Of a stretch of 32,000 bases of DNA, positions 824 through 22,842 are shown piece by piece (the first letter of the stretch is position 1; every line of letters begins with the position of its first letter). The notes under the pieces were generated by a model. It saw nothing but the letters and a program-made list of their open reading frames with translations. It ran no database searches and was not told the origin of the DNA. The translations under genes were made by a program, and so were the position numbers. Source of the DNA: Candidatus Iainarchaeum sp. GTDB taxonomy: Archaea; Iainarchaeota; Iainarchaeia; Iainarchaeales; 0-14-0-20-30-16. The stretch is from assembly GCA_028710695.1 (NCBI GenBank), contig JAQTTP010000003.1, forward strand, positions 69,285 to 101,284, read 5' to 3'.

Positions 824-3800
824 ATGGGCTTAAGGGACTTTTATTTTGGTTTAGAAGATAAATACTATAAAATGATCGATAAACTTGATACTATTTTTCC
901 TGCACATGCGATTGTGGATAGAATAGATAAAGTAATGCCTTCAATGATCCTGTTCTTTATTTTATTTGTAGTTATAATTGTTCTAATAATTTGGGCTGTA
1001 ATTCCGTCCTATGCTCAAATAAATGTTTCTTTCTTTAATGATGGCTTGAGTTTGAAGGAAAAAATCCCTTTTAGTATGTATATTGGGGATGAAAACTACT
1101 CCTTTGTTTCTGACGGAGGGTCAGCAATAGTAAAAATACCAAAAAGTGATCTGTATAGAATAAAAGTTGATACTTCTAAGTATTCAATAGACAAAGATTA
1201 CTCTTTTAGTGATGAAATAAAAGTTTTATTAGATAAAAAGAAAAAAAATATTCCAATACAAATTTATTTTAAATCTGGATATTCTGATGTAGAATCCGCA
1301 AGCGCAATATTTGATTGTGATAATATTTCAATACCGGATTCTGAAGCAAGTAAAGAAACAAATAATGGATATATTGAGATAACTGTGCCAGAAGATTGTG
1401 GAATTTTGAATATTTCTGCAAGTGCAGAAGGTTATAATTCTAAGAATGATGTTTGTGATTCAACTTCTTGTGTAATTAATTTTGAAAGTGCTACAAGCGT
1501 TAGTGATAATGGAAAAACAAATATTCCGACTGCAAATATAGTTGTAAAAATTGCAGATAATTTGGGCTCAAAAGATGGACAGGTAACTATTTATGATTCT
1601 TCTGATTTGATAAACCCTGTTGAAACAGGATATTCTTTAAACGGGTATTATAACTCTAAAGCTTTGGCTGTTGGGGGCTATAAAGTTGCTGTTAATGTTG
1701 GAACTTATTTGCCACAAACAAAAACAATAGTTTTGACTGAAGCAGGAATGAATGTTGATTTCATGGTTATGAAAAACACATTAGGAAATGTATTATTAAA
1801 AGTTGATGAAGAAACAGAATTTTCATATAAGTTGAAAGATTTAAATAATAATATATTGGATTCTGGAAATAGTGACAAAGAAGTTGCATTCCTTCCTGTA
1901 TTTGAGTACGGAAAATACCTGATTGATTTGACTCCAGATAGTAATGAATTTGGAGTAATCTCAAATGAGCAAGTTGAATTTAAAGAAGGCACTTCAGAAA
2001 TTACCTTGGATTTGAAAGAGATAACTTCTTTTAACGCTGTTTTAGTTAAATTGCATGTAATTGATGAATCAGAATCTCCAATACAAGGCGCAAAAGCATT
2101 TGTGCAAGATTTGTTTAGCGGATTTGAAGTGTTTAGTTATAACTTCCCAGAAACTGATGAAAATGGAGACACTCAACTTCCCATTACTGAAGAAGGGGCT
2201 TACTCTTTTAGAGTTTACAAAGGTTATTCAGAAGGAATGAGCGAGCAAGTAACAATTACTTTTGAGCCAGGAACTGAAATGCCAGAAGAAGAGTTGGATG
2301 TTGTAATTTATTTGGGAAATGGAAGTTTTAATATAACTGTTTTGGATGAATTAGATTATGTTGTGCCATTTGCACAAATTGATTTTTATACAAAAGGACT
2401 GACAAAAAAATCAGGAACAAAATTAACTGATAATGCTGGAAAATTATTATTTTCATTAAAAGCAGGAACAGAAAAATTCTTTGTGGCATCTAAAGAAGGC
2501 TATATGCCATTCTATAGTGAAGCAAGGTTTTTAACTCCTGCAAATATTTGGGATATAAATGCAAATTTAGAACCACAAAAACTAAAAGAGGATGATGAAA
2601 AAGCAAGAGTTGAATACTTGGGTGTATTTGATGCTCTTGGCGGAGAACCAACTAATTTCGAAGTTGATAAAGCAGTATATTTGGGTTATGATATCCACCT
2701 TTACACTGATGTGGATGAAATGAACTTCGAATATACTACTGGAAAAGAAACAACAACTGTAGAACAAGATTCTTTATTTATTTTTGATAGTAGTTCTTCA
2801 TCACAAGTGGATTCAATGTATGAAGATCTGGAAAAAACAATTTACACTGAGGATAAAGGAAAAATATTAACTGCAAAATGGACTACTGGATTGGATTCTG
2901 CAAAAGTGGAAAAAGGAATTTATAGGATCTATGTGAAAGTAATGGTTAGAAATGATAGCTCAGTATCTTTGTACGAACCATTGAATATAAAATGGAAATT
3001 ATATTTGGATGAAAAGTTAAATTCAAGCGAAGAAAAAGAATATTTCTTAGGAAGTAGTTTGGATTGTAGTGATATGTTTTGTGCAAAAACATCTTTATTG
3101 GACATTGAAAACCAAATCTATGTTGAAAATATTGGAAATGTAAATAAAAATGAACAAAAATATCCTTTAGTAATTGGAAAGAAGTATAAAACTGAATTCA
3201 CCTTAATGAACGGAATAACTGCAAGCGATGGAGAAATTGAAAATGGATACTTGAAAGCACACACAGCAACAAGTTCAGATACAAGTTTCATGGCTGTTGA
3301 AAATGATGTTGATAAATATAATTTCTATCAATTTTCAAATATATCTTTGAGTGGACCAAACAGCGAGAGCCAATATTATGGCGCCGCAAAAACAATTTTA
3401 GTAGATAAATATAATTTCACAAAATTCTTTGCAAATAAAACAATTTCTGGAAGCTTTAATTTAATTCCAACTTATGATAATGGGAATTACATTAACTTTT
3501 GGGTTATAGATTCTGATAAACAAGTTCCAGTAAGGGGGGCTCCAGCATTTAATTATTGGTTTGTGCCTGATGCACCACACTCTCTGAGCATAAAACTATT
3601 CCCTAATACTTTGTTAGTGCCAAATAAAGTTCAGAATTTGAAAGTGTATGTTTATGATGAACTTGAAAGTGTTGTAAAAGACGCAAAAGTAGTTGTATTA
3701 AAGAAAGCACCTAATGACTCAGTATACAAAACTGTGCAAGGTTGTAATAACTTAACAACTGATTATGAGGGCAAAGTAGTTTGTGAACTTCCGCCTTTTG

Positions 3801-6800
3801 AACCTAATACCTTTATACAAGTGTTGGCTTACAAAGAAGGATACAAGAGCTACAAGCATAATGATTTATTGCCTGATTTGAAAGTTGTGGAAGAAATAAT
3901 TTCTTTTAATCCTGCGAAATTGGATATTACAATTTCATATCCTAAAGAAAAAGCAGTGGTTGCAGATTTGACAATTGCAAATGCAAGTGCACAGGATTTA
4001 ATAATAAACAATATTGATTTGCAATTTGATAAATATTCTGAAAATTCTAAATTCCTTTTGAACTGGGAAGCAATGGAAGCTTACTTTGAGTCAGAATATA
4101 AAGGAAAAGTTATTTATGGAATTGAAGAAGATAAAGGAGTAAATGAAACAATTTTGCAAAACTTCTTTAAGGTAATAGCAAATGACACTTTTGATAAGAG
4201 TGTATATGCTGATAAAATTGGCGGAATAATAAAAGTAACTTTGGATACAAGTCCAGGAACTGTAACTTTGGATATTCCTTTTTCAATAAAATTCAAATTA
4301 GATTCTTATCCTGAAAATGCAGGAGAGTGTTTGAAGATTTCAATGCTAGAAAAAGATTTCTATATTGAAAAAGCAACAAACACAGAAATCGAAATGATAA
4401 ATACTTGTTTGTTAGATTCTGAAAAATTAACTCCTGCAATATTTGATAAATTATTTTTGTTGCTAACTTTAGAAGATGGAAGTTATAGTATTGTGAATTA
4501 TAGTTTAACAATACCTGACAAAGTTTCAAAGAATGTTGATATCGGAGTTCCTGCTTTACTTCTTGAAAATCTGAAAACAGATGTAACAAAACCAGATATG
4601 ACTGGGTTCTTGGGAATGACTCCTAAGTCAGTAAAAGGAAACCAAAAAATTGGAATTAAATTAATGGGTTATGTGACAACGGAATCTGGCCCAGCAAAAC
4701 TTGAATCTAATACAATATCAATTAATGTAAATACTGTTGAGTTAGCAAATTGTATTGGGGTTTACAATGACAACGGCGAAAAAATAGACAGAATAGATTT
4801 TGGTGTGTTTAGTAGTATAGAATATTTGGCGACAGCAGAATCAATAAATAATAAAGTTCATGGTCCATCAACAGAAATAGAAATAAAGAACGAATGTTCT
4901 GGATCTTTGTTGTATATAAGAGCATGTAAAGATAATGAAAATAATTTTAGTCCGGGTTGTGGAAATGAAAACAGCGATGCAAAACTTTCATTCTCTGTTG
5001 AAGACTTCACAAAAGGAATTGAATTGGCTGGTGGCGCAAGCCAAAAAGTAGAGATTTATAGGCCATCAATACCTGGTGCATATGCTTTAGATCTGTGGGT
5101 AAAAACAAAAGACCAATGGGGCTATAAAAAGATTTATGATGTTAAAACAAATGTAAAAACAACAACCGCATTTGGATACTTTAGTTATAATCCATTCTTG
5201 CCTATGTTTGATCTGAATACTGATATTACTCCTATGACAAATGGAGACGAATTTGAGTCAGATATAATGTACCTGTTCAATAGAGATTTATGGGTTTCAA
5301 AGATGAGTGATTTAGAGACTCTAGAAAAAATAGCAGAATGTGATACTGGCGGCTCTGGATGTTGGAATTCTTTAGATAGATTAGATCTGAGCTCTGGACT
5401 TGGTGACGATGGAGATAGTGTAGACAATTCAGAAACTGCGAGAAAAGCAGTATTCTATAGTGGAGTGGGAGTTGCAGGTGTTGGAGTTATTATTTTGATT
5501 GGTGTTGCTCTGTGTGCATCTTCTGTGCCAGTAGCCGGTTGGATTATTGGTGGTGCCGCGGCCATTGCTGCAGGGACATTTGCAATAATTTCTGCATTGG
5601 CTCCGGATGACTTTGAACAAATAACAGAATATCACTTGTTTGATATGGTTGGGGAAGATATTGCTCTTGATGCTGTGATTTATAGTCAAACTGATAAGAA
5701 AACTTATAATTGGCTGGATGGTACTTCAATGGATCCCGTAAAGTTGACGAGCTTGTTTGGAGAGCGGTATTATGATCTGTATTATGTTAATAAAGAAGTT
5801 GCTGGGTCTGTAGGATTTGCAGGCGGAGACCACAAGAAAGATTTGTGGTTTACTGTGTATTGTGGAACTGAATATGAGCCAGTTGTAGATGCAATTGTAA
5901 TAAACGACATAAAAAAAGAAGTTTGTGGCTGGCCTGAAGATGAACCTTTTGTTGTGAATGGTTCTGATGTTGAATTTAGACCAGATTGTTCTGATGCAGG
6001 ATTCTTGGACGGATTTGAACTACATTCACATGTTTATGTTCCTTGTGTTCTAAAACCAAAGAACTGGGTATATGAACAATTCAAAGGTGTAGATTATGGT
6101 TTGCCAAATACTGGTTTGGCAAGAGTAAAATATACTACAAAAGATTTGAAGCCAGGATATAATTACTTTGATGTTGATATGAATGTTATTGGGCTTTTGG
6201 ATATAGATCCAAAAGAAGTAAAGTTTAGAGTTTCTTTGTACAACCCTTTATCTGAAGAAGAAAAAATTCTTCCTCTTGGAGACTCTTGTAAGAATCTAAG
6301 TGGAGAGATTATTGGTTATACTGGTGAAAAAGCAAGGCCAAAACTAAAGTTTGTATGGGATTGGCAATCACAGGGGTCTGTTTTGAGCCCATATGAAGAT
6401 ATGAACTTTTGTAATACAGATAACTATTGTGACTCAACTCAATTCATGATGAATATGTTCAATAGAATAAATACATTTAATGATGAAATTTTGGATTTGA
6501 GTAAGAGCAATGATATGGATTTGCCGAAAACAAATCCTCAACCAGAAACACTTAAACCAGAGTATGACTACGATCCTGCAAAAGCAGAATCTCTTGGAGT
6601 TAAGTCTGTAAAACTAGAATTTACTAATTCAAACCTTTTGTATTTGAAAGTATCAAAAGATGTTGATGTAAATGTAAGTAAAATAAGTGTAATAGTTGGT
6701 GGGGCAGATGGGTCTTCTGGAGATATGGCTGTATCTTCTCAAAATCCAAATGTGTTTACTTATACCATATCTGATCAACCAGTTGAAGAATACAAAGATT

Positions 6801-8062
6801 TAGATGGAAAGAAGTATTCAATCATTTTGAAAATATATTCCGGAAATGAATCCGGGTTGTTGCCTGTGAATGTAACGTTAACATATATTCCAGAAGTACC
6901 TGCAAAGCCAATAAACGTACCTTTGTCAACAGAAATAATGGATGGTGCAATGGCTTTATCTAAATGGTTCTGGGATACTAATATGAACTTAGATGATGCT
7001 ACATCTGACACTTTGTTTGATGCACAAAAGAAGATATATTTCTTGGCAAACATAATGAAAGATGGATTTACAGAAGACTTCTTTAATGACTTTGTAAATT
7101 CATGTAATAGTGAATTCTTTGTGTGTCCAAGTGAAGTAAAAGATAGTTTTATGGCTCTTATGGAAGAAGGGCGTTTGAAAGTAGTTAATGTAGATGGCAC
7201 AAACAAATTAAATGGCCCCGGAAAGTATGTTGTAAGAACTATAATTGATTATAAGAATACAGACCTAGAAATTAAAGATGCAAATATAATAATAATTTTA
7301 GAGAAAGTTGAGCCACCAATACAAGATAATATTTTGTATTATATGCCTCTGGATGGTCCTATTGGAATAAGTGATTATAGTGTTGATAGACAAGGCTATG
7401 GTGTTGACTTCTCTGGAGCAACAATTGACCTTTTTAAGCTTGGAAATTTAGCAAAGAAATTGACAGTAAACACAACATCTAATCCAATAAATACTGTGAA
7501 TGTAGAATCAAATTATGATTTTGCTTCTGCTAACAAAATTGCAAGAGGCAGAGTTTTAGGAATAAATACTTTGGGCGACCAACAAGTGTTTGTGAACTTT
7601 GTTCCAATGAATCAAACAAAGTTTAACTTTGAACTAACTCCAGAAACAGATAAAGATACAAAATTCTGTTATGAAGTAGAACTTGATGACCAGATAATGA
7701 AAGGTCCAGATTCCTTGCTGCCGTTCTTTGCAAAAGATCCTGAAGCAAAAGATTTCACAGGACAAATGATGGTAGATAACTACCCTAAATTTGCAGAGGC
7801 AGGAGTTTGTGGAGATCAAGCTGGATTGAAGTATAGCTTAGAATCAGTAATGAGTTCTGATCCAATAGGTCTTTACACTTATGTGTATGCTTTGAATAAC
7901 ACAAATGTAAAAGTGACCAATAGTAGTTATGACAATACAGAAAGTTTGTCTGGAAAAACATTAAGTAGTGTATTTGATGATATTGCTGCAGGAAGGCTGT
8001 GTATAAATTCCACAAGCCAGACAATGGATGTATTTTGGAATGAATATGCTCAACAAAATTAA
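824..8062 (+). CDS. Giant membrane-anchored surface protein 1 (2412 aa), family unknown
   Basis: Single uninterrupted 7.2-kb ORF. N-terminal ~40 aa are hydrophilic, then a hydrophobic helix (MILFFILFVVIIVLIIWAVI). It has repeated segments with the carboxypeptidase-regulatory-like pattern, e.g. KLHVIDESESPIQGAKAFVQD...TDENGDTQLPITEEGAYSFRVYKGY. There are many N-x-S/T sequons and an internal Gly/Ala-rich double hydrophobic segment at aa ~1542-1593. The Cys-containing C-terminal region is colinear with the next gene. Confidence 0.9.
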   Translation: MGLRDFYFGLEDKYYKMIDKLDTIFPAHAIVDRIDKVMPSMILFFILFVVIIVLIIWAVIPSYAQINVSFFNDGLSLKEKIPFSMYIGDENYSFVSDGGSAIVKIPKSDLYRIKVDTSKYSIDKDYSFSDEIKVLLDKKKKNIPIQIYFKSGYSDVESASAIFDCDNISIPDSEASKETNNGYIEITVPEDCGILNISASAEGYNSKNDVCDSTSCVINFESATSVSDNGKTNIPTANIVVKIADNLGSKDGQVTIYDSSDLINPVETGYSLNGYYNSKALAVGGYKVAVNVGTYLPQTKTIVLTEAGMNVDFMVMKNTLGNVLLKVDEETEFSYKLKDLNNNILDSGNSDKEVAFLPVFEYGKYLIDLTPDSNEFGVISNEQVEFKEGTSEITLDLKEITSFNAVLVKLHVIDESESPIQGAKAFVQDLFSGFEVFSYNFPETDENGDTQLPITEEGAYSFRVYKGYSEGMSEQVTITFEPGTEMPEEELDVVIYLGNGSFNITVLDELDYVVPFAQIDFYTKGLTKKSGTKLTDNAGKLLFSLKAGTEKFFVASKEGYMPFYSEARFLTPANIWDINANLEPQKLKEDDEKARVEYLGVFDALGGEPTNFEVDKAVYLGYDIHLYTDVDEMNFEYTTGKETTTVEQDSLFIFDSSSSSQVDSMYEDLEKTIYTEDKGKILTAKWTTGLDSAKVEKGIYRIYVKVMVRNDSSVSLYEPLNIKWKLYLDEKLNSSEEKEYFLGSSLDCSDMFCAKTSLLDIENQIYVENIGNVNKNEQKYPLVIGKKYKTEFTLMNGITASDGEIENGYLKAHTATSSDTSFMAVENDVDKYNFYQFSNISLSGPNSESQYYGAAKTILVDKYNFTKFFANKTISGSFNLIPTYDNGNYINFWVIDSDKQVPVRGAPAFNYWFVPDAPHSLSIKLFPNTLLVPNKVQNLKVYVYDELESVVKDAKVVVLKKAPNDSVYKTVQGCNNLTTDYEGKVVCELPPFEPNTFIQVLAYKEGYKSYKHNDLLPDLKVVEEIISFNPAKLDITISYPKEKAVVADLTIANASAQDLIINNIDLQFDKYSENSKFLLNWEAMEAYFESEYKGKVIYGIEEDKGVNETILQNFFKVIANDTFDKSVYADKIGGIIKVTLDTSPGTVTLDIPFSIKFKLDSYPENAGECLKISMLEKDFYIEKATNTEIEMINTCLLDSEKLTPAIFDKLFLLLTLEDGSYSIVNYSLTIPDKVSKNVDIGVPALLLENLKTDVTKPDMTGFLGMTPKSVKGNQKIGIKLMGYVTTESGPAKLESNTISINVNTVELANCIGVYNDNGEKIDRIDFGVFSSIEYLATAESINNKVHGPSTEIEIKNECSGSLLYIRACKDNENNFSPGCGNENSDAKLSFSVEDFTKGIELAGGASQKVEIYRPSIPGAYALDLWVKTKDQWGYKKIYDVKTNVKTTTAFGYFSYNPFLPMFDLNTDITPMTNGDEFESDIMYLFNRDLWVSKMSDLETLEKIAECDTGGSGCWNSLDRLDLSSGLGDDGDSVDNSETARKAVFYSGVGVAGVGVIILIGVALCASSVPVAGWIIGGAAAIAAGTFAIISALAPDDFEQITEYHLFDMVGEDIALDAVIYSQTDKKTYNWLDGTSMDPVKLTSLFGERYYDLYYVNKEVAGSVGFAGGDHKKDLWFTVYCGTEYEPVVDAIVINDIKKEVCGWPEDEPFVVNGSDVEFRPDCSDAGFLDGFELHSHVYVPCVLKPKNWVYEQFKGVDYGLPNTGLARVKYTTKDLKPGYNYFDVDMNVIGLLDIDPKEVKFRVSLYNPLSEEEKILPLGDSCKNLSGEIIGYTGEKARPKLKFVWDWQSQGSVLSPYEDMNFCNTDNYCDSTQFMMNMFNRINTFNDEILDLSKSNDMDLPKTNPQPETLKPEYDYDPAKAESLGVKSVKLEFTNSNLLYLKVSKDVDVNVSKISVIVGGADGSSGDMAVSSQNPNVFTYTISDQPVEEYKDLDGKKYSIILKIYSGNESGLLPVNVTLTYIPEVPAKPINVPLSTEIMDGAMALSKWFWDTNMNLDDATSDTLFDAQKKIYFLANIMKDGFTEDFFNDFVNSCNSEFFVCPSEVKDSFMALMEEGRLKVVNVDGTNKLNGPGKYVVRTIIDYKNTDLEIKDANIIIILEKVEPPIQDNILYYMPLDGPIGISDYSVDRQGYGVDFSGATIDLFKLGNLAKKLTVNTTSNPINTVNVESNYDFASANKIARGRVLGINTLGDQQVFVNFVPMNQTKFNFELTPETDKDTKFCYEVELDDQIMKGPDSLLPFFAKDPEAKDFTGQMMVDNYPKFAEAGVCGDQAGLKYSLESVMSSDPIGLYTYVYALNNTNVKVTNSSYDNTESLSGKTLSSVFDDIAAGRLCINSTSQTMDVFWNEYAQQN

Positions 8063-8183
8063 TAAAAAAGTAAGTAGGTAAAGAACAGCATTAGTTAGGT
8101 TAAAAAAATGCTAAAAAAAGGTCAACGGTTAGTACAGAAAGGAGACAAAAAACACCTCTTAAGATGGTGTACAAAATTTGGCT

Positions 8184-8213
8184 CCTATAAGAATTATAAT
8201 TATTGGTGATTGT
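8184..8213 (+). promoter_or_regulatory. Promoter / 5' region of giant gene 2
   Basis: cctataagaattataattattggtgattgtATG parallels cctataattatatatata...ggtgtttttATG upstream of gene 1. Confidence 0.45.
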
Positions 8214-11200
8214 ATGAGTTTTAGAGAGCTATATACGAAAATAGAAGATAAATATTATGCGATGTTGGATAAGATAAATCAAGTTATACCTATCCACAAG
8301 CTTACTGACCAAATTGACAAGGTAATGCCCTCGATGATATTCTTTTCTGTATTCTTTTTAGTGATAATTGGACTTATTATTTGGCTAATAGTTGCTAGTG
8401 TTGGATCTTCAACAATCACTTTTGAATTTTATTCTAATGGAACACTTGCATCCGGAGAATTTAATGTAACTTTCTCTTCCGAAGGTGGAGAACAAATTGC
8501 TCTTGTGAAGAATGGAATTGCCTTTGGAAATTATGATATGGGGGATTTTGTAACTGTGAAAATAAAAGAGCCTTATACTTTTTCAAAAACTTATGAAATT
8601 AAAAGCGAATTAATGAAAATTGACTTGCCAGGATTAGACAAACTTGCTTTGAAGGAAGCAGAAAAAAAGAATAAAGAAATTTCTATTTATTTGTATGATG
8701 GCACATCTGGGTCTCTAGTTAAAGAAAAAGCGATTGTTAGCGCAAGTTGTGAGGATTTTAGTAAAGAAATAGAAGTAACTGGAAACACAAAACTTGCAAT
8801 TCCTGATAATTGTTCTTATGTTGATTTGTTAGCAACTGCTGACGGATATTTACAATCTAAAAAAAGTTGTGATACCGCTTTGTGTAAAATATTTATGGAC
8901 AAAAAAGGAACAACTACTCCAACAACTGTTGTTCAATCAATTCCAAAAAATAAAGTTGTTGTGTATGTAAAAGATAATAAAGGAACTTCTCTGGAAGGGT
9001 TTGATGTAAAAATTACTGGGGTTGAATCAATACAAGATGTTTTGAACCAAGCAAAAACAAATGCTTTTGGAAGTTACACTTTTGAAGATATTACTGTTGG
9101 AAATTATAAATTGTATGTGTCTGATCCTTCTGGAACTTTGACTACTGTAAGCAAAGATTTAATTGTTGTATCTGGGCCTCCAGTTATTGCAGATATTACT
9201 ATGGAAAAGCCGCCTTTGGGATATTTTAATGTAAAAGTGAATACTGAGAATACAGGTGGATTTGCATTAGCTACTTTGTATGTGAAAGATGTAAATGATA
9301 ATTATCTTGGAACTGTGGACATAAATACTGGTGTAGAATACAAGATAGGTGTTTATGAAAAAGGAAAATATATTTTTAATGTAATTCCTGTAACTGGTTA
9401 TGATGAAAATTATTCAATTGTTACTGAAGAAAGAGAATACGATTTGCAAAGCGGAGATAAAAAAGTTGATTTAGTTTTGAAAGAATTAAAATATTATGAA
9501 AATACAAAAGTTAATTTGAAAGTTGTAAAAGAAAAAGATGATGGGTCTGAGGAACCATTGCCAAATATGAAAATAATAGTTGAAAATGACGAAGGCTGGC
9601 AAATAGAATTGCCTGCTGACAAAACAAAAACAGATGTAAATGGTTCTGTGAGTTTTATTTTGCCATCTGGAGTTTACATAGTTCATGCTTATAATTATTA
9701 TTTTACTGGAGAAACAAATTTACAATTATTGGACACTCCTGGTGCAACAGAATTGCCTGAAACAGATGCAAAGATTGCTGTTCAGATTGGAAAAGCAAAA
9801 ATAAAAGTTTCTGTTAAAGACGAAGATGGAAAGGATTTGACAGATGTGAAAGTAGATATCTATATGGATTCCAATTTTTTTGGACCAATGTTTATAAGTC
9901 AAGAAAAATACAAAGAGGTTCAGGTTGAGGCATATCATAGTTATTATGTAAAGGTAACAAAAGAAGGATATTTGAATTATTATAGTCCAGAGTTGGTTTT
10001 GAAGAAAGACCAATTAATGGATGAGAAAGTAATTTTGTATAATAAATTAGAACACTTAAACTCAGATCCTGAAATGATTTATGTTGGGGCATATAAAGAT
10101 CAAGAATTAAAAACAAAGCTTGATAAAATAGATCAAGAGAATGAGTTTTATTATGTGTTTGATTTAGTTGTTCCAGAATTTAGTGAAAAATTGTATGAAA
10201 TTTCTGGGGTTAAAGTAACTGGTGTTGCAGGAAACAAAAATTTGCCAGTTTTAGAAAGCGATTTAGTTTTAAAGAACGTATTTGCGTCTGGAAAAACACA
10301 TTTATTTAGTACAATAACTGGAACTTCTTTAGCAGAACAAGGTGAAGATTTTACTTATACTGCAAAATCTTTTACAAGCGAGTTTAATGGGGGCTCTTAT
10401 GTTGCAAGAATGGTTGTGCATTTGAGATCTACTGATATTCCTCAAATAGGGGATAAATTATTCTTTTATTATAAATTAGATATAGATACTAAACAAAATG
10501 GCTCTTTTAATTTGCCAATACCAACTGACGCAGAATATTATGAATTAATTAAGTTCTTGGGAAAACGAGAACTTTGTGAAAATGAAGTTGTTTGTGTTGA
10601 TACTTACTTAGATGGAATGGCAACAAGTAGTTTGCCTGGCGGAAGCGAAAATAAAGTGGAATTATATTCTGGAAAGCAGAATAATATTCTTGTAAATCTT
10701 ACAAAGGGTGATGAACTTCCAACTGAACTTGAAGCAAGTAAGTTTACAGTATTCAATTCTACAATTTCTTCTGTAGAGAACTTTAATTCTTTGAAAGACT
10801 TCTATGTTGATTTGGAAGATATGAGTTTAGTGCACGACAAAATAACATCTACAAAGCCAATAGAAATTGACTCACAAACAGCACCGGTATTTGTAAAAGA
10901 AGCATCAATAAATAATTATAAAATTAATACTACTTTGAAGTTTGATTCAAAAATTGAATTGGTGGAACCAGAGAATTCAAAACTTTATTTTAATTTTGAT
11001 ACTACTAATGAAGTTGAGCAAGTATATGTTGATTTAGAAACAATGAACGATGACGAACCATTAAAGTTAGAAGGGCTGCCAGAAGGAGATCTTTTGATTC
11101 CTGGAATTGAAAACTCTTTTGATGTAATTGTGAAATCTGGAGAAGATAAGATTGGGGCTGCAATAATAAAAATATATTTCTTTGATGGAATGAATTGGTC

Positions 11201-14200
11201 TTTAGAAAATACTTTTACTGCAGGAAATGATGGTGTTGCAAAAATTACTATAAAGCCACACACACAAGGTGAAGAAGTAAAAATATCTGCTGAAAAAGAA
11301 AGTTATTTGCCTTGTGCAAAGATTTTATTAGTAAGTACTGATTTGTTTGAAATAAACAAAAGCAAGAATGAAACAAAAATAGTTTATCCAAAAGATTTAA
11401 ATCCAGTTGCAGGAAAATTGGGAATAAAAAACAAAACAAATATTGATTTTGAAGTTTATAATGTGGAATTTGTGGGTTCTTCAAATTTGGGTTTATTGAT
11501 GAATGTAGAAAAAATGGAAAACTACCTTAAAGATGCAAAACCATTGTTAATTCCAAATGAAGAAACAATAGGATTTAAAATGCATTATAATGATTTGCCA
11601 GTACAAACTTTGACAGATTCAGTTGCTCTTGATGATGTTCATGCAATGTTATCTGTTAGGCCAAAAGGATCAGAAAGTGAAATTGTTTTGGATGTTCCAA
11701 TAACTTTGGAAATAACTTTTAATAATCAGCCTTTGGAAGAGAATTGTGTTTCTGTTGAATTTACAAAAGATTTAAGTAAACTATCTGGGGAAACAGAGTT
11801 TAGTGCTGTATTCCTGAACGGTGTTGCGCCAGAAACTTATTTGATAATAGAAAACTCTTGTACAATTGAATTGAACGAAGGCCAAGGAAGTGTTGCGGAT
11901 TATGAATTTGCTGACTTTTTGTTAGATGCGTCATTTTCTAAGATGGCAAATAATATAATGGGCGGATTCACAATTAATATTGAAGGTGCAAGTGATAATA
12001 CAAAAACAGAAAATTATTCTTTGTTTAAAGTTGATACTGGCGAAGTAATAAAATTGCTTTCTCCAAAGAAAAAGAGCAATGACAAATATATTTACAAAAT
12101 CACATTTGAAAAACTTGGAGATTATGAATTTGGAAAGAACGGAACAAATGTAGAATTTAAATTTATTCCAAAGTACCAAGGTGTTGGAAACCAAACGATC
12201 TCTTTTGGAGAGAAGAAACTTTCAATGAACGTTTCTGAAAAGAAGATATCTGATTGCTTATATTTCGGGTTGAATACAAATGTTAATACCCAATCTGTTG
12301 CTACCGACACTGAAGGAGTGGCTACTGAAGAAGGTTCTGAACAGCAAGTTATTATGCCAATTAGTATAGACGAACAACAATATTATTTGAAAGGTGGAAA
12401 TGGAATATTAAGATTGGGTTATGATTATGTTGATGAGACTGTGGGCCCAGAATCTTTGAATGCGAATTTGACTTTGGATAACACAAGTAACTTGCAAATA
12501 ACTAGGCCAGGTAATGATTATGTTGTAAACTCCCTGCCGCTTTTAATTAAGAACACTTGTGGAATTGATTTGGAAATAAAATTGTGTAAAGAAGATGATG
12601 AATATTGTAGAATTCCTGATGTAGGATTTATGCAATTTGATACTTTATATGGTGTTGAAGGATTTGAGTTATATAATACTCCTTTAACTATTGGTGCGGA
12701 TAAAGAAATACAATTCTCCTTATTGAGGCCGCAGGAATTCTCCGGTGCTGTTGTACTTCCTTTGTATGTAAAAAACACAACAGGAGAATATGGCTTGGCA
12801 AAAGAAGCAAAGGTATCAGTTCAATCTTCATTGTTTAATCCATACTTTGTGTTAAATCCATTTGTTGAAGATGGAAACATGGACATTACTTTCTACAAGA
12901 ATGAATATTATCCAGATATGACTGGTTGGTCAGATCCAATAGAGAAACAGTTATTGACCAACGACACAGATTCAAGCTCATATCTGCGATTGATCCAAAT
13001 AACTCCTGGTCCAATTTTTAATTATGATGGGGACGATGATTCTGGAAATATTTTAGATTCTTTTGAAGCACTGAACCCAAAGTCAATTGACTATACGGAT
13101 GATAGTTCTGATGTTGACCAAAGTCTTAGTGAAAAAGTTGTTGGGGTTGTAGGCGGTATGATTAGTGGCGGCGTAGATATATTGTACTATATAAAAGAAG
13201 TAGAATATAATCTTCCACAATGGGCTATAATAAAAATAATGGCAAATAGATTCCATAAAGGGTCTTTGAGTGATTTAGATGATGATGTGGCCGCAACAGC
13301 AGAATATAGAATTTGGTCAGAAAGCTTGCCAATACAAAATATATTAAATAATAAACAGATTTTTGACGGTTTTAATAATGATTGGTGTGAGCTTGAAGAT
13401 GATTCTTGCTTCTTTAATTATGAAGGCCCAGTTCAAAAAATTGCAGATATTTTGCGTGAAACTGTCGGAACAAAGTACCCTTATTTTACATCAATAAGTG
13501 TTGCAAGGTTGGAAGGAGATTGTGGTTGGTCAAATGTTATTGCCTATGCACAAGGGTTTTGTCCACAGGGGTATGAACTTGCAAAAATAGAACTTTTTAG
13601 AAAAGATGGCGGAACTGTTGATGGCAGAGATAATACTTTCTCTCAAGTTACTGAAGGCAAGACAACAAAATACTTATATGGTGGCTCTGTAAACTTTGAA
13701 GATAAATATATTAATGAAGAGTCAGATACTGGCTATCAGATGATGACTATTTGTAGGCTTCCTAGATCAGAGTTTGGAGAAGTAGATCGTGCTGTTGGGG
13801 GAACAATGAAATATAGTTCTTTTGGCAGTGGGTCAATATTTGATTCCTCAGGAATAGAAAATATTGTAAAAAGTAAGATCCAAGCAACAGACATATTTAA
13901 TTGCACGGACTGCACTTCTGAATTGAGAGAATTTTTATTTGATGTATATGATGCAGAGGCAGCAGATATGGATTGTGAAATAACACCGCCAGGTTATTTT
14001 GATGCGGGTGATAATGATGAATATGAGATATACCAGAATAATTCATCTGGATGCCCCGGATTTGACTACTCAAAAATAAACTTATTAAATGAGTTATACC
14101 AAGGCAAGGAAAATGATGTAGACAATTATAAGGCAAGGACTGCGGCAGTAGTAACTAGTATAGTAACAAACTCAGGGAAAACGACATCTGGAGAACTTGC

Positions 14201-15590
14201 TTATGCAGCAAATATGGCTTTTGCAGGTAGTGATACTTTCTTTGGTTATATTGATGATGCATATGGTATTAATTTTGATGGGCTAATAATAGAACTTTGT
14301 AAAGATGGTTCAAAGACAAAAAATAATGGTACTTGTAGTCATGCAACTCAATTACGTGCTAGCTTTGGACCGTATAATTATAATTCCATCTCTATAACTG
14401 CTGCTGAATTTGATGGCTTAAATTCAAACATAAGACTATATCTTGAGCCAAAGACAATGAAGAAAGACTTTGCATTCTATAAGAAAGTAAATTCATGCCC
14501 ATATGGTGGGTATACTGGCCCAGAAGTAAAGCCAACAATAAATTATACTTGGGCAGAAAGTGCAATAAAAAAAGATTTCTGTGTTGTTGAGGGTGAAGAG
14601 AATTATGCAGATGTAAATGCTTGTGATTTAGTTCAATTCTCTAAAGTGATTTCAAAACAATTTTCAGATGATATGGAACAAAAGCATTTTACTGTAAAAC
14701 TGATGTATGACAACTATTCTGAAAGTGCAATAAATTCTTTAATAGAATGGTCTTTCTTTGAACACATAAAAGATTTAAGAATCCTGAATTATGATGGAAG
14801 CCCGGTGGGAGAAATTGGGCCTGGAATTTACAATGTAGATTTAATACGTGATGAAAATGTATTGGATGTGTACTTATCATATCTGACAAGTTATGGGCCA
14901 GATCATATATTCTATAGGATGCCTGTAGACAATGTTGGTACTGGGGCAATCCCTGGAATTGGAACTTCAATGAACTATCCAATAAATTATGATGGCTTTG
15001 GAAGCTTTAGTCAGATTAAAGATGACGTTTCTACCTTAAAAGAATATTCTGTTTCAAACCACGATTTGAAAACAATAAATACAACTCAAAAAGGAACTGT
15101 GTTTGCAGGATACTTTAATGATGGCTTGATATATTGGAATAACATGGATGTATATCTGCTGACTGCACACTTGGGAACTGACGAGAATAAAGAAATTTTG
15201 CTAACTGCTCCAGAATATGATACGGAAATCTATGAAGTTCTAAAATCTGGCTGGATTTATGAAGATGGTGAAGACTACTACTATGCTGAAAATGCGGGAT
15301 TTGGGTTTGGAGTGGTTGACACAGATAATGGCAAGAAGTTAAAGATAAGTAATGCAAGCGGATACAATAGAACTGTAAAGAAAATATTATTCTATCCACA
15401 AGGAAGCGCGTTGGATTTGCCAGAACAGGATGATGTAACTCTTACACAGCTTGATGTTGAGCCAATATACAGTATAACAGACATATTCAAAGGATTGGAA
15501 AATGAAAACATTTGTTATAGGGCTTTGGAAGACGGAAGTGAATATTATTATAACCCTTTGAAATTATTAGATATAATACAAACGCAATAA
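8214..15590 (+). CDS. Giant membrane-anchored surface protein 2 (about 2458 aa from ATG 8214), paralog of 824..8062
   Basis: The ORF track starts at TTG 8178. ATG 8214 gives MSFRELYTKIEDKYYAMLDKINQVIPIHKLTDQIDKVMPSMIFF..., which aligns residue-for-residue with the N-terminus of gene 1. It has the same TM anchor, beta-sandwich modules (e.g. KIKVSVKDEDGKDLTDVKVDIY...VKVTKEGYLNYY) and a colinear C-terminal module. Confidence 0.9.
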   Translation: MSFRELYTKIEDKYYAMLDKINQVIPIHKLTDQIDKVMPSMIFFSVFFLVIIGLIIWLIVASVGSSTITFEFYSNGTLASGEFNVTFSSEGGEQIALVKNGIAFGNYDMGDFVTVKIKEPYTFSKTYEIKSELMKIDLPGLDKLALKEAEKKNKEISIYLYDGTSGSLVKEKAIVSASCEDFSKEIEVTGNTKLAIPDNCSYVDLLATADGYLQSKKSCDTALCKIFMDKKGTTTPTTVVQSIPKNKVVVYVKDNKGTSLEGFDVKITGVESIQDVLNQAKTNAFGSYTFEDITVGNYKLYVSDPSGTLTTVSKDLIVVSGPPVIADITMEKPPLGYFNVKVNTENTGGFALATLYVKDVNDNYLGTVDINTGVEYKIGVYEKGKYIFNVIPVTGYDENYSIVTEEREYDLQSGDKKVDLVLKELKYYENTKVNLKVVKEKDDGSEEPLPNMKIIVENDEGWQIELPADKTKTDVNGSVSFILPSGVYIVHAYNYYFTGETNLQLLDTPGATELPETDAKIAVQIGKAKIKVSVKDEDGKDLTDVKVDIYMDSNFFGPMFISQEKYKEVQVEAYHSYYVKVTKEGYLNYYSPELVLKKDQLMDEKVILYNKLEHLNSDPEMIYVGAYKDQELKTKLDKIDQENEFYYVFDLVVPEFSEKLYEISGVKVTGVAGNKNLPVLESDLVLKNVFASGKTHLFSTITGTSLAEQGEDFTYTAKSFTSEFNGGSYVARMVVHLRSTDIPQIGDKLFFYYKLDIDTKQNGSFNLPIPTDAEYYELIKFLGKRELCENEVVCVDTYLDGMATSSLPGGSENKVELYSGKQNNILVNLTKGDELPTELEASKFTVFNSTISSVENFNSLKDFYVDLEDMSLVHDKITSTKPIEIDSQTAPVFVKEASINNYKINTTLKFDSKIELVEPENSKLYFNFDTTNEVEQVYVDLETMNDDEPLKLEGLPEGDLLIPGIENSFDVIVKSGEDKIGAAIIKIYFFDGMNWSLENTFTAGNDGVAKITIKPHTQGEEVKISAEKESYLPCAKILLVSTDLFEINKSKNETKIVYPKDLNPVAGKLGIKNKTNIDFEVYNVEFVGSSNLGLLMNVEKMENYLKDAKPLLIPNEETIGFKMHYNDLPVQTLTDSVALDDVHAMLSVRPKGSESEIVLDVPITLEITFNNQPLEENCVSVEFTKDLSKLSGETEFSAVFLNGVAPETYLIIENSCTIELNEGQGSVADYEFADFLLDASFSKMANNIMGGFTINIEGASDNTKTENYSLFKVDTGEVIKLLSPKKKSNDKYIYKITFEKLGDYEFGKNGTNVEFKFIPKYQGVGNQTISFGEKKLSMNVSEKKISDCLYFGLNTNVNTQSVATDTEGVATEEGSEQQVIMPISIDEQQYYLKGGNGILRLGYDYVDETVGPESLNANLTLDNTSNLQITRPGNDYVVNSLPLLIKNTCGIDLEIKLCKEDDEYCRIPDVGFMQFDTLYGVEGFELYNTPLTIGADKEIQFSLLRPQEFSGAVVLPLYVKNTTGEYGLAKEAKVSVQSSLFNPYFVLNPFVEDGNMDITFYKNEYYPDMTGWSDPIEKQLLTNDTDSSSYLRLIQITPGPIFNYDGDDDSGNILDSFEALNPKSIDYTDDSSDVDQSLSEKVVGVVGGMISGGVDILYYIKEVEYNLPQWAIIKIMANRFHKGSLSDLDDDVAATAEYRIWSESLPIQNILNNKQIFDGFNNDWCELEDDSCFFNYEGPVQKIADILRETVGTKYPYFTSISVARLEGDCGWSNVIAYAQGFCPQGYELAKIELFRKDGGTVDGRDNTFSQVTEGKTTKYLYGGSVNFEDKYINEESDTGYQMMTICRLPRSEFGEVDRAVGGTMKYSSFGSGSIFDSSGIENIVKSKIQATDIFNCTDCTSELREFLFDVYDAEAADMDCEITPPGYFDAGDNDEYEIYQNNSSGCPGFDYSKINLLNELYQGKENDVDNYKARTAAVVTSIVTNSGKTTSGELAYAANMAFAGSDTFFGYIDDAYGINFDGLIIELCKDGSKTKNNGTCSHATQLRASFGPYNYNSISITAAEFDGLNSNIRLYLEPKTMKKDFAFYKKVNSCPYGGYTGPEVKPTINYTWAESAIKKDFCVVEGEENYADVNACDLVQFSKVISKQFSDDMEQKHFTVKLMYDNYSESAINSLIEWSFFEHIKDLRILNYDGSPVGEIGPGIYNVDLIRDENVLDVYLSYLTSYGPDHIFYRMPVDNVGTGAIPGIGTSMNYPINYDGFGSFSQIKDDVSTLKEYSVSNHDLKTINTTQKGTVFAGYFNDGLIYWNNMDVYLLTAHLGTDENKEILLTAPEYDTEIYEVLKSGWIYEDGEDYYYAENAGFGFGVVDTDNGKKLKISNASGYNRTVKKILFYPQGSALDLPEQDDVTLTQLDVEPIYSITDIFKGLENENICYRALEDGSEYYYNPLKLLDIIQTQ

Positions 15591-15623
15591 GTAACAGGAT
15601 AATGAAAAAATTGGTGTTTAAGA

Positions 15624-16043
15624 ATGGATATAACAATGTTGATAGGGCTAGGAGAGTTCTTTGGGGACTTTGTCTTCATAATAAAGATCTTTGCCTTTAT
15701 TGCCATTCTTGGGTTTGTTAACAGATATATCCAGAGCAAGTTAATAAAAATAATAATGGTCGTGTTTATGGGTTATTTTATCCTTATTGCAAACTGGGCT
15801 GTATTTGGAACTATGTTTGTGATATATACTTTATTGGGAATTGGTGTTGCAGGAATACTAACAGATTTCTTCTTTGCTGGTCAGAATATTATTGGTGAAG
15901 GTGAACAAGAAAGGCAGATGGCCCAAGAAAAAGAGCGGGAAGAAATGGAGAGAAGAAGAATGCTTGAGGATGCACGGCCAGTATCTAGTAGTGCGAGTTT
16001 GCATAAAAGGCCCCCAATTCCACCTGCACTTATGAGAAGGTAG
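15624..16043 (+). CDS. Small polytopic membrane protein with charged/Pro-rich C-terminal tail (139 aa)
   Basis: Starts 33 nt after the giant gene 2 stop. It has 3-4 hydrophobic helices, then GEGEQERQMAQEKEREEMERRRMLEDA...KRPPIPPALMRR. Confidence 0.75.
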   Translation: MDITMLIGLGEFFGDFVFIIKIFAFIAILGFVNRYIQSKLIKIIMVVFMGYFILIANWAVFGTMFVIYTLLGIGVAGILTDFFFAGQNIIGEGEQERQMAQEKEREEMERRRMLEDARPVSSSASLHKRPPIPPALMRR

Positions 16044-16047
16044 AACT

Positions 16048-16407
16048 ATGGCGATTAAATTAAATGAAAAGGGTGCAATAATAATTGCAATTGGCATTGC
16101 GTTTGTAGTAATAATACTGCTGCCAATTGTGTTTATGCAAATCTTTTCAATTTCAAAGCCTCTATTTCAGATTATAATTGCCTTTGTTATAATGGGGTAT
16201 ATACGAAATGTTGGAATAGAAGGAATACCATTTTGGACTTTGTCTGCTATTCTAATATACTTTTTAGCTTGGAAATATGTTGAGATTGCTTCAAGCTTTT
16301 ATGTTTTGATGTTATTAATGGGTTTAGGATTTACTTCATCTTTGATCTGGGGTTCAATATTCTTTACTGGGCTTTTGAAAAATAGAAAAATGGCGAAGCA
16401 AGGATAA
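16048..16407 (+). CDS. Small 4-TM membrane protein (119 aa)
   Basis: 4-nt gap after the previous gene. Four hydrophobic segments and a short basic C-terminus (KNRKMAKQG). Confidence 0.75.
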   Translation: MAIKLNEKGAIIIAIGIAFVVIILLPIVFMQIFSISKPLFQIIIAFVIMGYIRNVGIEGIPFWTLSAILIYFLAWKYVEIASSFYVLMLLMGLGFTSSLIWGSIFFTGLLKNRKMAKQG

Positions 16408-16441
16408 CTATAAAAACAAAATTGTGTTATATAGTGATAAT

Positions 16442-16687
16442 ATGAATTGGATTCTGTTAGTTGCTGATGTAGGAACATTTAAAGGGGATGTATGGTTAGC
16501 CCTGTTCCTTTACGTAAGTATAATGGTTTTTGCATGGGCAAAAGGAAAGCTTGGAAGCCCAGAAGTAGCTATTTTGTATACAATCATAATGATGTTTTTG
16601 GTGTTTTATCAGCACGATGTTCTAATTTGGCTTGCCTTGGGACTATACCTTTACCAGACCTATGGTAAGGAGATATTCAAGGGCTGA
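16442..16687 (+). CDS. Small 3-TM membrane protein (81 aa from ATG; track uses GTG 16424)
   Basis: The ORF is almost entirely hydrophobic (VWLALFLYVSIMVFAWA, VAILYTIIMMFLVFY, VLIWLALGLYLY). ATG 16442 is preferred over GTG 16424 but the choice is unresolved. Confidence 0.65.
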   Translation: MNWILLVADVGTFKGDVWLALFLYVSIMVFAWAKGKLGSPEVAILYTIIMMFLVFYQHDVLIWLALGLYLYQTYGKEIFKG

Positions 16688-16692
16688 TCTGA

Positions 16693-17031
16693 ATGGAAAT
16701 TTTCTCCTTTATAATCTCGATGTTTGTAATGATGGTTGCATCGCAATATGGGTTATATTGGCTTATGATAATAGTTGCGGGTGTTGCTGCTTTCATGTCT
16801 AAGGAGAAGAAAGTACTGATAATTTTTGTGATTTATATTGCAATCCTGTATTTCATAAAGGGCACTGCCTATGAATCTTATGGAATTTATGTTGCTGCAG
16901 TAATCATTGTGGTTTATTTAATCTTGAATAAAGGGGATTCTGGTGGTGAAGAAGAAGCACTGGGCGGAATGGGAGATCAATATGGTGATCTTCTGAAGGG
17001 CCTTGGCGGCGGTGGCGGCGGGGGAATGTAA
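16693..17031 (+). CDS. Small 4-TM membrane protein with acidic/poly-Gly tail (112 aa)
   Basis: 5-nt gap after the previous gene. Four hydrophobic segments, then DSGGEEEALGGMGDQYGDLLKGLGGGGGGGM, encoded by a locally GC-rich tract. Confidence 0.75.
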   Translation: MEIFSFIISMFVMMVASQYGLYWLMIIVAGVAAFMSKEKKVLIIFVIYIAILYFIKGTAYESYGIYVAAVIIVVYLILNKGDSGGEEEALGGMGDQYGDLLKGLGGGGGGGM

Positions 17032-17075
17032 ATTCCTGAAGGAATTGTGAAGGAAAACCCCCCAAAAAGACCAAG

Positions 17076-17138
17076 AAACCTTTATAAAGCTATGTTATAT
17101 TGATTATATATATTATATATAGAGCGATGTGAAGTATC
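17076..17138 (+). promoter_or_regulatory. Promoter region of the 17139 gene
   Basis: aaacctttataaa (17076-17088) is identical to the 13-mer upstream of ftsZ (23761-23773). It is followed by a (TA)n tract and gagcgat, mirroring tatatatacagcgat upstream of giant gene 1. Confidence 0.5.
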
Positions 17139-17483
17139 ATGAAGTTATTAATTGCTTTGTTATTAGGAATATTGGTATTTGGATTGATGAACAACTCATC
17201 CCTGTTAAGTATAGGTCTAATTTTGTTAGGAGTTTACCTATTGTTTAACATAGTACAGGGTGCAAAGAGCAATGCAAGTACTTTGAAGAAGTTTGTTGAT
17301 GTTAAGGAAATTAACTTCGACAATCTAAAATGCCCTGAGGGTATTGTGGACAATATGTTGAAGGATGCCGGAAAAGTTACAAAGAATATGCTTAACGGAA
17401 ACAAGACTGAAAACATAGGAAAGGCATTGCATAACGGAACTTATAATGCTTTACAAGACGTTGGTGCTCCTTTCAAGAACTAG
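17139..17483 (+). CDS. Small membrane protein, two N-terminal TM helices plus ~70-aa soluble domain (114 aa)
   Basis: MKLLIALLLGILVFGLMNNSSLLSIGLILLGVYLLFNIV, then a hydrophilic Lys/Asn-rich domain. It has its own promoter and is followed by T-runs. Confidence 0.7.
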   Translation: MKLLIALLLGILVFGLMNNSSLLSIGLILLGVYLLFNIVQGAKSNASTLKKFVDVKEINFDNLKCPEGIVDNMLKDAGKVTKNMLNGNKTENIGKALHNGTYNALQDVGAPFKN

Positions 17484-17498: not shown

Positions 17499-17519
17499 TT
17501 TTTTTTATTGGTTTTTTTT
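17499..17519 (+). terminator. Oligo-T terminator after the membrane-protein cassette
   Basis: ccttttttttattggtttttttt: two T8 runs directly after the stop at 17483. Confidence 0.6.
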
Positions 17520-22154: not shown

Positions 22155-22199
22155 AATTTAATTAGGAAATAGTTGTATAAATAACATTTGTTGTTGAGA

Positions 22200-22271
22200 T
22201 GCCCCGGCCGGGAATTGAACCCGGGTCGAAAGAGTGAGAGTCTTTCGTGATAGCCACTACACTACCGGGGC
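22200..22271 (-). tRNA. tRNA-Glu (anticodon CUC)
   Basis: Hand-folded cloverleaf: acceptor GCCCCGG/CCGGGGC, anticodon stem AAAGA/TCTTT, loop CT-CTC-AC, T-arm CCGGG-TTCAATT-CCCGG, discriminator A. No encoded CCA. Confidence 0.93.
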
Positions 22272-22272
22272 A

Positions 22273-22345
22273 CTAGCCTTTTAATAAAGGCTAAGTTTGC
22301 CAAAATTGGGTCCATCTTCGCGGCTAGCCGCTCGATAACCCTTAC
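22273..22345 (-). ncRNA. Conserved ~72-nt structured module, copy 1, abutting the tRNA-Glu 5' end (strand uncertain)
   Basis: Aligns block-for-block with 22917-22988. It contains the hairpin AGCCTTT-ATTA-AAAGGCT and a compound stem GGGTTATC...GATGGACCC enclosing the GCGG-CTAG-CCGC hairpin. Confidence 0.5.
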
Positions 22346-22367
22346 TTACTTTTTTGGAGAGCTTACC

Positions 22368-22398
22368 GTTTTCTTTCTTTTATGAACTTAAGCTCTTC
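22368..22398. repeat. 31-nt intergenic repeat, copy 1
   Basis: gttttctttcttttatgaacttaagctcttc is identical to 23260-23290. Confidence 0.9.
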
Positions 22399-22814: not shown

Positions 22815-22842
22815 TATTCTAAATAATCTTAAAAAATAGAAG

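Follow-up and report, generated by a model that had tools for sequence, protein, structure and literature searches.

A 32,000-nucleotide (nt) stretch of DNA from Candidatus Iainarchaeum sp. (contig JAQTTP010000003.1, positions 69,285 to 101,284), hereafter called the window, was found to carry a cluster of seven genes, in which two tandem genes for giant proteins are followed by five genes for small membrane proteins. The Iainarchaeota (Diapherotrites) are one of the founding DPANN phyla, and the window consists of low-GC (~33%) archaeal DNA that also encodes FtsZ, a Hef-type helicase-nuclease, FEN1, an Mre11-like phosphoesterase, RpiA, and six tRNA genes. An earlier note on this DNA, made from the sequence alone, had placed two giants and five small membrane-protein genes on one strand, and the map of open reading frames (ORFs) agrees. 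All coordinates below refer to the plus strand of the window unless marked otherwise. Giant 1 occupies positions 824-8062 (2412 amino acids, aa) and giant 2 positions 8214-15590 (2458 aa). The ORF of giant 2 opens at TTG 8178, and ATG 8214 is almost certainly the true start because it aligns with Met1 of giant 1. The small genes are S1 at 15624-16043 (139 aa), S2 at 16048-16407 (119 aa), S3 at 16424-16687 (87 aa from a GTG), S4 at 16693-17031 (112 aa), and S5 at 17139-17483 (114 aa).

The intergenic gaps from giant 2 through S4 measured 33, 4, 16, and 5 nt, and were thus as short as had been stated before, with a gap of 107 nt between S4 and S5. No run of five or more T residues was found in the intergenic gaps inside the cluster, and two T8 runs at 17499-17519, an archaeal terminator-like signal, follow S5. 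This pattern fits an archaeal transcription unit that ends near position 17520, and together with the gaps of 4-33 nt it is consistent with co-transcription of the cluster. The upstream gene (2-661, minus strand) is divergent and represented by a 220-aa fragment that runs off the left edge of the window, with no Pfam match.

Giant 1 was 100% identical to an NCBI protein from a metagenome-assembled genome (MAG) of 'Candidatus ainarchaeum sp.' and 55% identical to its ortholog (P0002) in the closest relative, locus L001, where the ortholog of giant 2 showed 41-45% identity. The proposal that the two giants are colinear paralogs was supported by a significant BLASTP alignment over aa 1-650 (27% identity, E = 4e-47), though the similarity is strong only in this N-terminal quarter and continues beyond it as weak colinear islands. 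Both giants begin with a peptide of about 40 residues, followed by one strongly hydrophobic helix at residues ~41-63 as judged by hydropathy; in giant 1, this N-terminal signature (aa 1-40) and single transmembrane (TM) anchor (aa ~41-63) are encoded at 824-1012. The shared peptide described in the earlier note proved to be a family signature: among 23 giants from about 20 species, a consensus of MGLKD.Y..LEDKWY...DKID..IP.Y.I.D.ID.V.PSF was obtained, with E11, Y15, D35, P39, and S40 invariant. Apart from the C-terminal module, no region of the giants is better conserved, and a profile built from the signature found no match among PDB sequences.

The topology of the giants and of S1-S5 was derived from hydropathy, composition, and the positive-inside rule. 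On this basis, the giants are predicted to be N-in, C-out signal-anchor proteins with about 2,350 extracellular residues. The predicted ectodomains are strongly acidic, with a net charge of -144 in giant 1 and -162 in giant 2, and they are rich in N-x-S/T sequons (28 and 30, respectively, or ~1.2 per 100 residues, as compared with 0-0.3 per 100 residues in four cytoplasmic proteins of the window). Each giant has a mass of ~265 kDa and carries 28-29 Cys residues (1.2%). The first ectodomain of giant 1 includes a cluster of four (C165, C192, C211, and C216; 1316-1471), which had been reported as conserved between the giants; three of them are at identical alignment positions in giant 2, with the fourth nearby. 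The predicted N-in signal anchor, the acidity, the sequon density, and a divergence faster than that of the housekeeping neighbors are all consistent with surface exposure.

CarboxypepD_reg (PF13620), a beta-sandwich, was the sole Pfam family found over threshold in the giants. It occurs at 2054-2260 in giant 1 (E = 2.7e-09, above the gathering score) and at aa 249-331 in giant 2, and it was accompanied by sub-threshold matches to Big_1, SdrD_B, and SpaA. One or two such CarboxypepD_reg/Ig-like beta-sandwiches near or over the Pfam thresholds account for less than 5% of each protein. Searching 300-aa tiles of giant 1 against Pfam added nothing, as nine of the ten tiles had no match at E <= 0.01, and comparisons of the giants with NCBIfam, PHROGs, and PADLOC returned nothing meaningful. 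The earlier note had named a match of the giants to a well-characterized surface layer (S-layer) or adhesin family as an outcome that would speak against it; no such match was found, these generic beta-sandwiches being the only ones.

The last ~600 residues of giant 1 (aa ~1814-2412; 6263-8059) form a module, hereafter the C-module, which recurred in almost every other giant when the giants of related loci were compared. Its YCD.TQ, CP, D..DF, GRQGYG-type, C.DF, VCV, and FWNP motifs are invariant, and giant 1 scored 570 bits on the general C-module profile. An exhaustive HMMER search of 1.84 billion representative proteins identified 781 clusters at E <= 1e-3, of which 486 were at E <= 1e-30. 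Nearly all of these are proteins of 2,200-3,250 residues that end in the module, and the shorter matches appeared to be fragments. No match was found between the C-module profile and PDB sequences, and a fold search with an AlphaFold2 (AF2) model (predicted local distance difference test score, pLDDT, of 70) using Foldseek against PDB and viral structures returned only single beta-sandwiches.

The C-terminal Cys module that had been ascribed to both giants is clear in giant 1 and degenerate in giant 2 (aa ~2091-2458; 14484-15587). There, the middle has diverged, and what is kept is an opening block, C..G.TG..P..W...C..CD..QF, and a closing block, ICY....YYNP. The general profile missed the C-terminus of giant 2, whereas deeper, type-specific profiles picked up the two blocks at 22.5 bits (E ~1e-8 in a search of 10 sequences); with only these blocks detected, giant 2 carries the module in degenerate form. 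In other species, the upstream 'A' giants and the S1-adjacent 'B' giants could be separated by C-module type in 21 of 21 cases each by a self-inclusive test. Such a separation suggests an old duplication and, by extension, a heteromer.

A Gly/Ala-rich hydrophobic segment is encoded at 5444-5602 in giant 1 (aa 1541-1593), with an acidic stretch before it and a DDFEQ motif after it. This arrangement, which had been attributed to both proteins, is strong in giant 1 (hydropathy of 2.5) and marginal in giant 2 (1.65). Among the 41 giants with enough sequence for a survey, a comparable segment lay 120-290 residues before the C-module, reaching a hydropathy of at least 1.9 in 16 and being weaker in several more. 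The segment is thus a positionally fixed element of the family, though not a universal one, and it may form a TM hairpin or a membrane-insertion element.

Each of the five small proteins contains two to four membrane helices according to hydropathy and the positive-inside rule applied to family alignments, in agreement with their previous description as polytopic membrane proteins. S1 and S3 each have three TM helices and are predicted to expose an acidic N-terminus and to keep a basic tail on the inner side of the membrane, the C-terminal tail of S1 being about 45 aa long. Four TM helices were predicted for S2, and three for S4, which ends in a Gly-rich C-terminal tail. S5 is predicted to consist of an N-terminal two-helix hairpin and a Lys-rich soluble domain of ~75 residues. 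Profile-profile comparison with hhalign identified S1 and S2 as paralogs (probability of 97.6%, E = 3e-12 over 72 columns), and S3 is probably a paralog of both (87% and E = 4e-6 against S1). S4 is a distinct family, unrelated to S1-S3 by the same comparison. The S5 of the window (S5a) matched the family found at the fifth position in other species (S5b) with a probability of 82% (E = 1e-5 over 94 columns), and on this evidence it is a divergent counterpart of S5b. The S1 family comprised 99 clusters in a collection of 5.8 billion proteins, and an AF2 model of S1 has three helices (pLDDT of 80). No relatives of S1 were found in Pfam, PDB sequences, or Foldseek searches; a Pfam scan of 41 S1 members gave noise-level matches only, to TMEM208/SND2 in five members and to TrbC/VirB2 (PF04956) in two.

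The conservation of the cluster was assessed by a locus scan with an S1 sub-alignment as the query and one genome per GTDB species. The scan yielded 43 species-level loci, a number that samples the S1 subfamily with the LKIF.L..I and VTQHLGK motifs and is not to be read as a fraction of Iainarchaeota genomes. Labels of Iainarchaeum or Diapherotrites predominate among the loci, one of which (L018) belongs to the type genome, Ca. Iainarchaeum andersonii. In a census with hidden Markov models (HMMs), all 43 loci had S1-S2-S3-S4, locally rearranged in L049 only, and 30 of the 43 had a detected S5b. Of the loci, 41 include upstream DNA, and in each of these a C-module ended less than 2 kb before S1. 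A second, upstream giant was present in 20 of these 41; including L006, two giants were found in 21. The closest relative, L001, has an identical layout of two giants, five small genes, RpiA, and Mre11. At greater distance, four S1 homologs on long contigs (24-36% identity) all follow two giants of 2,350-2,830 residues and precede four to five small genes, and in L003, where the giants are only ~25% identical, homologs of S1 and S2 come directly after the last giant. The earlier note had presented the small genes as coupled to the giants, with independent scattering as the outcome that would speak against it; each S1 homolog with a readable context had giants directly before it and S2-S4 after it.

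Recurrence of this gene order in 43 further species puts the arrangement far beyond chance. The genes flanking the operon are housekeeping genes, namely RpiA and Mre11 in the window and L001, and a family-B DNA polymerase and methionine aminopeptidase elsewhere. Between the window and L001, the giants were 55% and 41% identical, compared with 80% for RpiA, 74% for Mre11, and 67-81% for S2-S5, where S3 (81%) was the best conserved gene of the cluster. Judged by the conserved gene order, the housekeeping neighbors, and the absence of S1 relatives from viral contigs, the cluster is a vertically inherited, strictly conserved chromosomal operon that is phylum-wide in the Iainarchaeota/Diapherotrites.

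Several loci carry additional features. In L003 (2344-9339) and L004 (1701-9389), a third giant of 2331 and 2562 aa, respectively, was found upstream of the A/B pair and is followed by an ORF of ~160 aa; it has no full C-module, with none detected in L003 and a weak match (34.5 bits) in L004. Toxin-antitoxin genes (RHH_12 with PemK, or PIN) were located between or beside the giants at L005 1938-2472, L003 18968-19396, and L004 398-1581. In one clade (L005 11752-19892, L006 14607-20426, and L007 12376-18688), the operon is followed by a conserved ~160-aa ORF (minus strand), a ~490-500-aa ORF (plus strand), and a ~150-aa ORF (minus strand), all three without Pfam matches, and then by the family-B DNA polymerase and methionine aminopeptidase genes. 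These ORFs might encode additional components that the lineage of the window lacks. Additionally, L024, L037, and L040 (JAFCCH010000027.1, JAFCBY010000074.1, and JAFCCG010000009.1) carry a complete operon of the Iainarchaeota type but are assigned to Thaumarchaeota, Falkowbacteria, and Chloroflexi MAGs, respectively; all three are AB_1215 bins and are most likely mis-binned.

Taken as a whole, the operon is best explained as encoding a phylum-wide cell-envelope complex, whether a coat or a spike layer, a reading to which we assign a probability of about 0.5. The two giants would be diverged ancient paralogs, represented elsewhere by the distinct A and B lineages. Each would be inserted by its single N-terminal signal-anchor helix, leaving a peptide of ~40 residues on the cytoplasmic side and exposing ~2,350 residues, in which acidic, probably glycosylated, and disulfide-stabilized arrays of beta-sandwiches would end in the ~600-residue C-module. 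S1, S2, and S3, together with the unrelated S4 and with S5, would form a membrane-embedded base that binds the conserved N-terminal peptide and TM helix of the giants and serves to hold or build a heteromeric A/B structure at the surface. The small proteins are suggested as the base because the N-terminal peptide and TM helix are the only parts of the giants positioned to meet them, and are among the most conserved parts of the giants. The faster divergence of the giants than of S2-S5 between the window and L001 is the pattern expected of exposed ectodomains on a conserved base, and the paralogy of S1-S3 is as expected of a hetero-oligomeric one. Topology, physical association, heteromer formation, and the function as a surface coat are all features that we infer.

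A number of points weigh against this reading. The topology is a prediction made from hydropathy and the positive-inside rule, and the association of the giants with S1-S5 is drawn solely from gene linkage and the conserved membrane-proximal end of the giants. The test that separated the A and B types was self-inclusive, and the giants of the window are themselves ambiguous between the two (169 versus 152 bits for giant 1 and 22.5 versus 14.2 for giant 2). The hydrophobic segment in the middle of the giants is not explained by a simple coat model. Finally, known archaeal S-layer proteins are much smaller, at 40-200 kDa, and usually poor in Cys, and subunits of 260 kDa would be out of the ordinary for a two-dimensional lattice.

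The alternative that survives best, which we regard as possible though on the unlikely side, is an apparatus for contact with a host or partner cell, functionally analogous to SPEARE proteins and giant symbiont adhesins, in which the C-module binds the partner, the hydrophobic segment inserts into the membrane of that cell, and the small proteins anchor the giants or form a basal channel through which material is exchanged. DPANN archaea are mostly episymbionts, for which giant surface proteins have been proposed as interaction factors, and the giants diverge faster than their neighbors, as a contact apparatus might. The investment is also large, as the operon takes up ~17 kb in Diapherotrites MAGs whose genomes are reported to be ~1 Mb. 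In 16 of 41 giants, the hydrophobic segment has a fixed position before the C-module and a composition resembling fusion peptides or glycine zippers, but it is weak or absent in most of the giants, and homology to a SPEARE, adhesin, toxin, or fusogen was not found. The strict synteny in the core genome and the invariant set of partners resemble a housekeeping architecture more than determinants of host range, and the literature found describes no cultured member of the Iainarchaeota. The conservation of what is apparently a single locus, in synteny and throughout the phylum, points to a constitutive envelope structure at least as much as to a host-specific attachment factor. Of the undescribed surface or host-interaction system that had been proposed, the conserved coupling and the surface features stand, and host interaction is reduced to one among the live options.

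In another alternative, S1-S5 are machinery for the biogenesis of the giants rather than their anchor, acting as an insertase, holdase, or export platform that reads the N-terminal signature, possibly a new kind of sorting or cleavage signal with PS|F as its end at the membrane boundary, and aids the translocation of the two 260-kDa proteins. The signature is conserved in the manner of a targeting signal and abuts the TM helix, and sequence conservation is higher in the small proteins than in the giants they would serve. A hint in the same direction, namely matches of five of the 41 S1 members to TMEM208/SND2, a targeting factor independent of the signal recognition particle (SRP), stayed below threshold (best E = 0.008) and is typical of the noise produced by TM segments. 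Signal-anchored proteins are normally handled by the Sec system, five different small proteins would be many for a chaperone function, and no ATPase or energy-coupling component was found in the operon with Pfam and NCBIfam models. We consider this account doubtful.

A more elaborate form of the contact hypothesis, which should be regarded as a long shot, is a membrane-bridging machine. Its C-module would recognize the partner cell, the Gly/Ala-rich hairpin would insert into the partner membrane, the giants would stand on a hetero-oligomeric base, and the N-terminal signature would serve as a new sorting or docking signal. If this is true, the Iainarchaeota, and perhaps other DPANN archaea, would possess equipment dedicated to attaching to other cells, fusing membranes, or exchanging cytoplasm.

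Archaeal Ced/Ted systems use pilins of the VirB2/TrbC type, and a pilus or conjugation-like system with S1-S3 as such pilins and the giants as tip or adhesion proteins is close to refuted. The best Foldseek match of the S1 model was to VirB2 of the Agrobacterium T-pilus (E = 3.1, probability of 0.09), and PF04956 was touched by two of the 41 S1 members (E ~0.85), but both signals are at noise level, and neither search gave a significant sequence or fold match. S1 differs from these pilins in having three TM helices and a long cytoplasmic tail, and no VirB4/CedB ATPase, VirB6/CedA, or prepilin-peptidase motif was found in or near the operon in the window, L001, or L003-L008. A mobile element, provirus, defense island, or chance adjacency, which the toxin-antitoxin genes (PIN, PemK/RHH) between or beside the giants of some loci might suggest, is effectively refuted by the gene order kept in 43 species beside housekeeping genes and by the absence of S1 relatives from 2.9 million viral contigs, and is further opposed by the lack of PHROG and PADLOC matches, of an integrase or repeats, and of any departure in composition from the rest of the window.

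The cell-envelope complex proposed here was also compared with known systems. The SPEARE proteins of the Nanohaloarchaeota are defined by a serine protease domain in the extracytoplasmic part, at least one laminin-G domain together with other adhesion domains, and a type III restriction-enzyme domain in the cytoplasm; the last is the most conserved region, and most SPEAREs are anchored by a TM helix near the C-terminus (Hamm et al., 2019; PMC6642349). The Iainarchaeota giants resemble them as giant, mostly extracytoplasmic, membrane-anchored proteins of DPANN archaea with small genomes, which occur as several paralogs, occupy a few percent of the genome, and contain beta-sandwiches of the adhesion type. 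In contrast, they are predicted to be anchored N-terminally with only ~40 cytoplasmic residues, and no cassette of small membrane proteins has been reported for SPEAREs. The giants showed no match to a protease family at E <= 1 (Pfam and NCBIfam, whole or tiled), to ResIII or a helicase (Pfam), or to laminin-G (Pfam). Homology to SPEAREs was rejected, since none of the characteristic domains is present, and the comparison drawn in the earlier note is an analogy at best.

The S-layer proteins of archaea are 40-200 kDa in size and contain few sulfur-containing residues, the S-layer protein of Micrarchaeota being 101 kDa. In Sulfolobales, the membrane-anchored layer is a heteromer of SlaA and SlaB, whose genes are co-transcribed, and SlaB has its anchor at the C-terminus. 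The operon resembles this pair in its two giants, which would likewise be co-transcribed and form an anchored heteromer, and it shares with S-layers in general the acidic, glycosylated, fast-evolving, and core-genome-encoded character predicted for the giants. The acidity and sequon content of the giants fit S-layer proteins, whereas their size of ~265 kDa and their Cys content of 1.2% (~29 residues) do not; they share no sequence or fold similarity with S-layer proteins, and small polytopic partners are known neither for SlaA/SlaB nor for S-layer proteins generally. No S-layer model in Pfam or NCBIfam matched the giants at E <= 1, nor did any PDB sequence, and membership in a curated S-layer family was rejected.

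Two further comparisons were made. The tandem giants of Ca. Sukunaarchaeum mirabile are rich in alpha-helices, have at least four TM helices, and are hypothesized to function in host association (bioRxiv 10.1101/2025.05.02.651781). Both systems consist of adjacent giant genes on the same strand with a predicted membrane role, kept despite genome reduction, but the Iainarchaeota giants are beta-rich with a single N-terminal anchor, and no homology was reported or found. Surface proteins with CarboxypepD_reg/Ig-like domains (PF13620, Big_1, and SpaA/SdrD-type) share one or two such domains with each giant, and offer no counterpart to the N-terminal signature, the C-module, or the small-protein partners.

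No description of the operon was found in the literature on DPANN giants, CarboxypepD_reg, and the surface and S-layer proteins of Diapherotrites and Micrarchaeota, though a prior mention is possible in the first genome paper on the Diapherotrites (Youssef et al., 2015), which lay outside the literature covered. No archaeal or bacterial surface system was found in the literature in which giant ectoproteins are coupled to paralogous tiny membrane proteins, and the literature found held no account of the cell covering or of cell-cell interaction in the Iainarchaeota. Within these searches, the operon architecture is new, and all of its component families are without known counterparts. Membership in the new family can be marked by the N-terminal signature with its TM helix, the C-terminal module, and a colinear S1-S2-S3-S4(-S5) directly downstream of the last giant, all of which are present in the window. 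The three sequence modules and the five small-protein families may be used to annotate ~780 giant clusters and at least 99 S1 clusters that are now 'hypothetical'. With its share of ~17 kb, a constant order in every locus examined, and families without known relatives, the operon is a prime candidate for the principal surface structure of the phylum.

Besides the signals described above, two putative promoters were identified in the cluster. The first, an archaeal promoter of giant 1 at 774-823, includes a TATA-like AT-rich box and a 15-nt element, TATATATACAGCGAT, at 793-807. The second, a putative internal promoter of S5 at 17081-17138, includes another copy of the element, TATATATAGAGCGAT, at 17114-17128. 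The element, TATATATA[C/G]AGCGAT, has exactly two copies in 32 kb, where 0.14 would be expected by chance, and these are located 31 nt 5' of the giant 1 ATG and 25 nt 5' of the S5 ATG. Its presence ahead of both genes suggests that S5 is probably transcribed from its own promoter, of a type common to giant 1 and S5. TATA-like elements occur at the position equivalent to the S5 promoter in L001, where the 15-nt element is not conserved, and it is for this reason treated as a minor observation.

Outside the cluster, the window includes a 485-aa protein (20697-22154, minus strand) with an N-terminal hydrophobic helix, 32 Cys residues in repeated modules, a Thr-rich linker, and no Pfam match. An HExxH motif, HELVH, was found at aa 331 (nt 21150-21164). 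The protein looks secreted and may be a new zinc metalloprotease. Five tRNA genes (Glu-CTC, Leu-CAA, Ser-CGA, Lys-CTT, and Asn-GTT) are located on mixed strands within 1 kb at 22198-23179, and a separate tRNA-Arg-GCG at 31058-31132. Another protein without a Pfam match, of 266 aa, is encoded at 29030-29830. The ORF listed for FEN1 (25742-26830, minus strand, TTG start) and the terminal part of the Hef helicase-nuclease gene (26763-29012, minus strand) have 68 nt in common (26763-26830), and the true start of FEN1 is probably an internal ATG.

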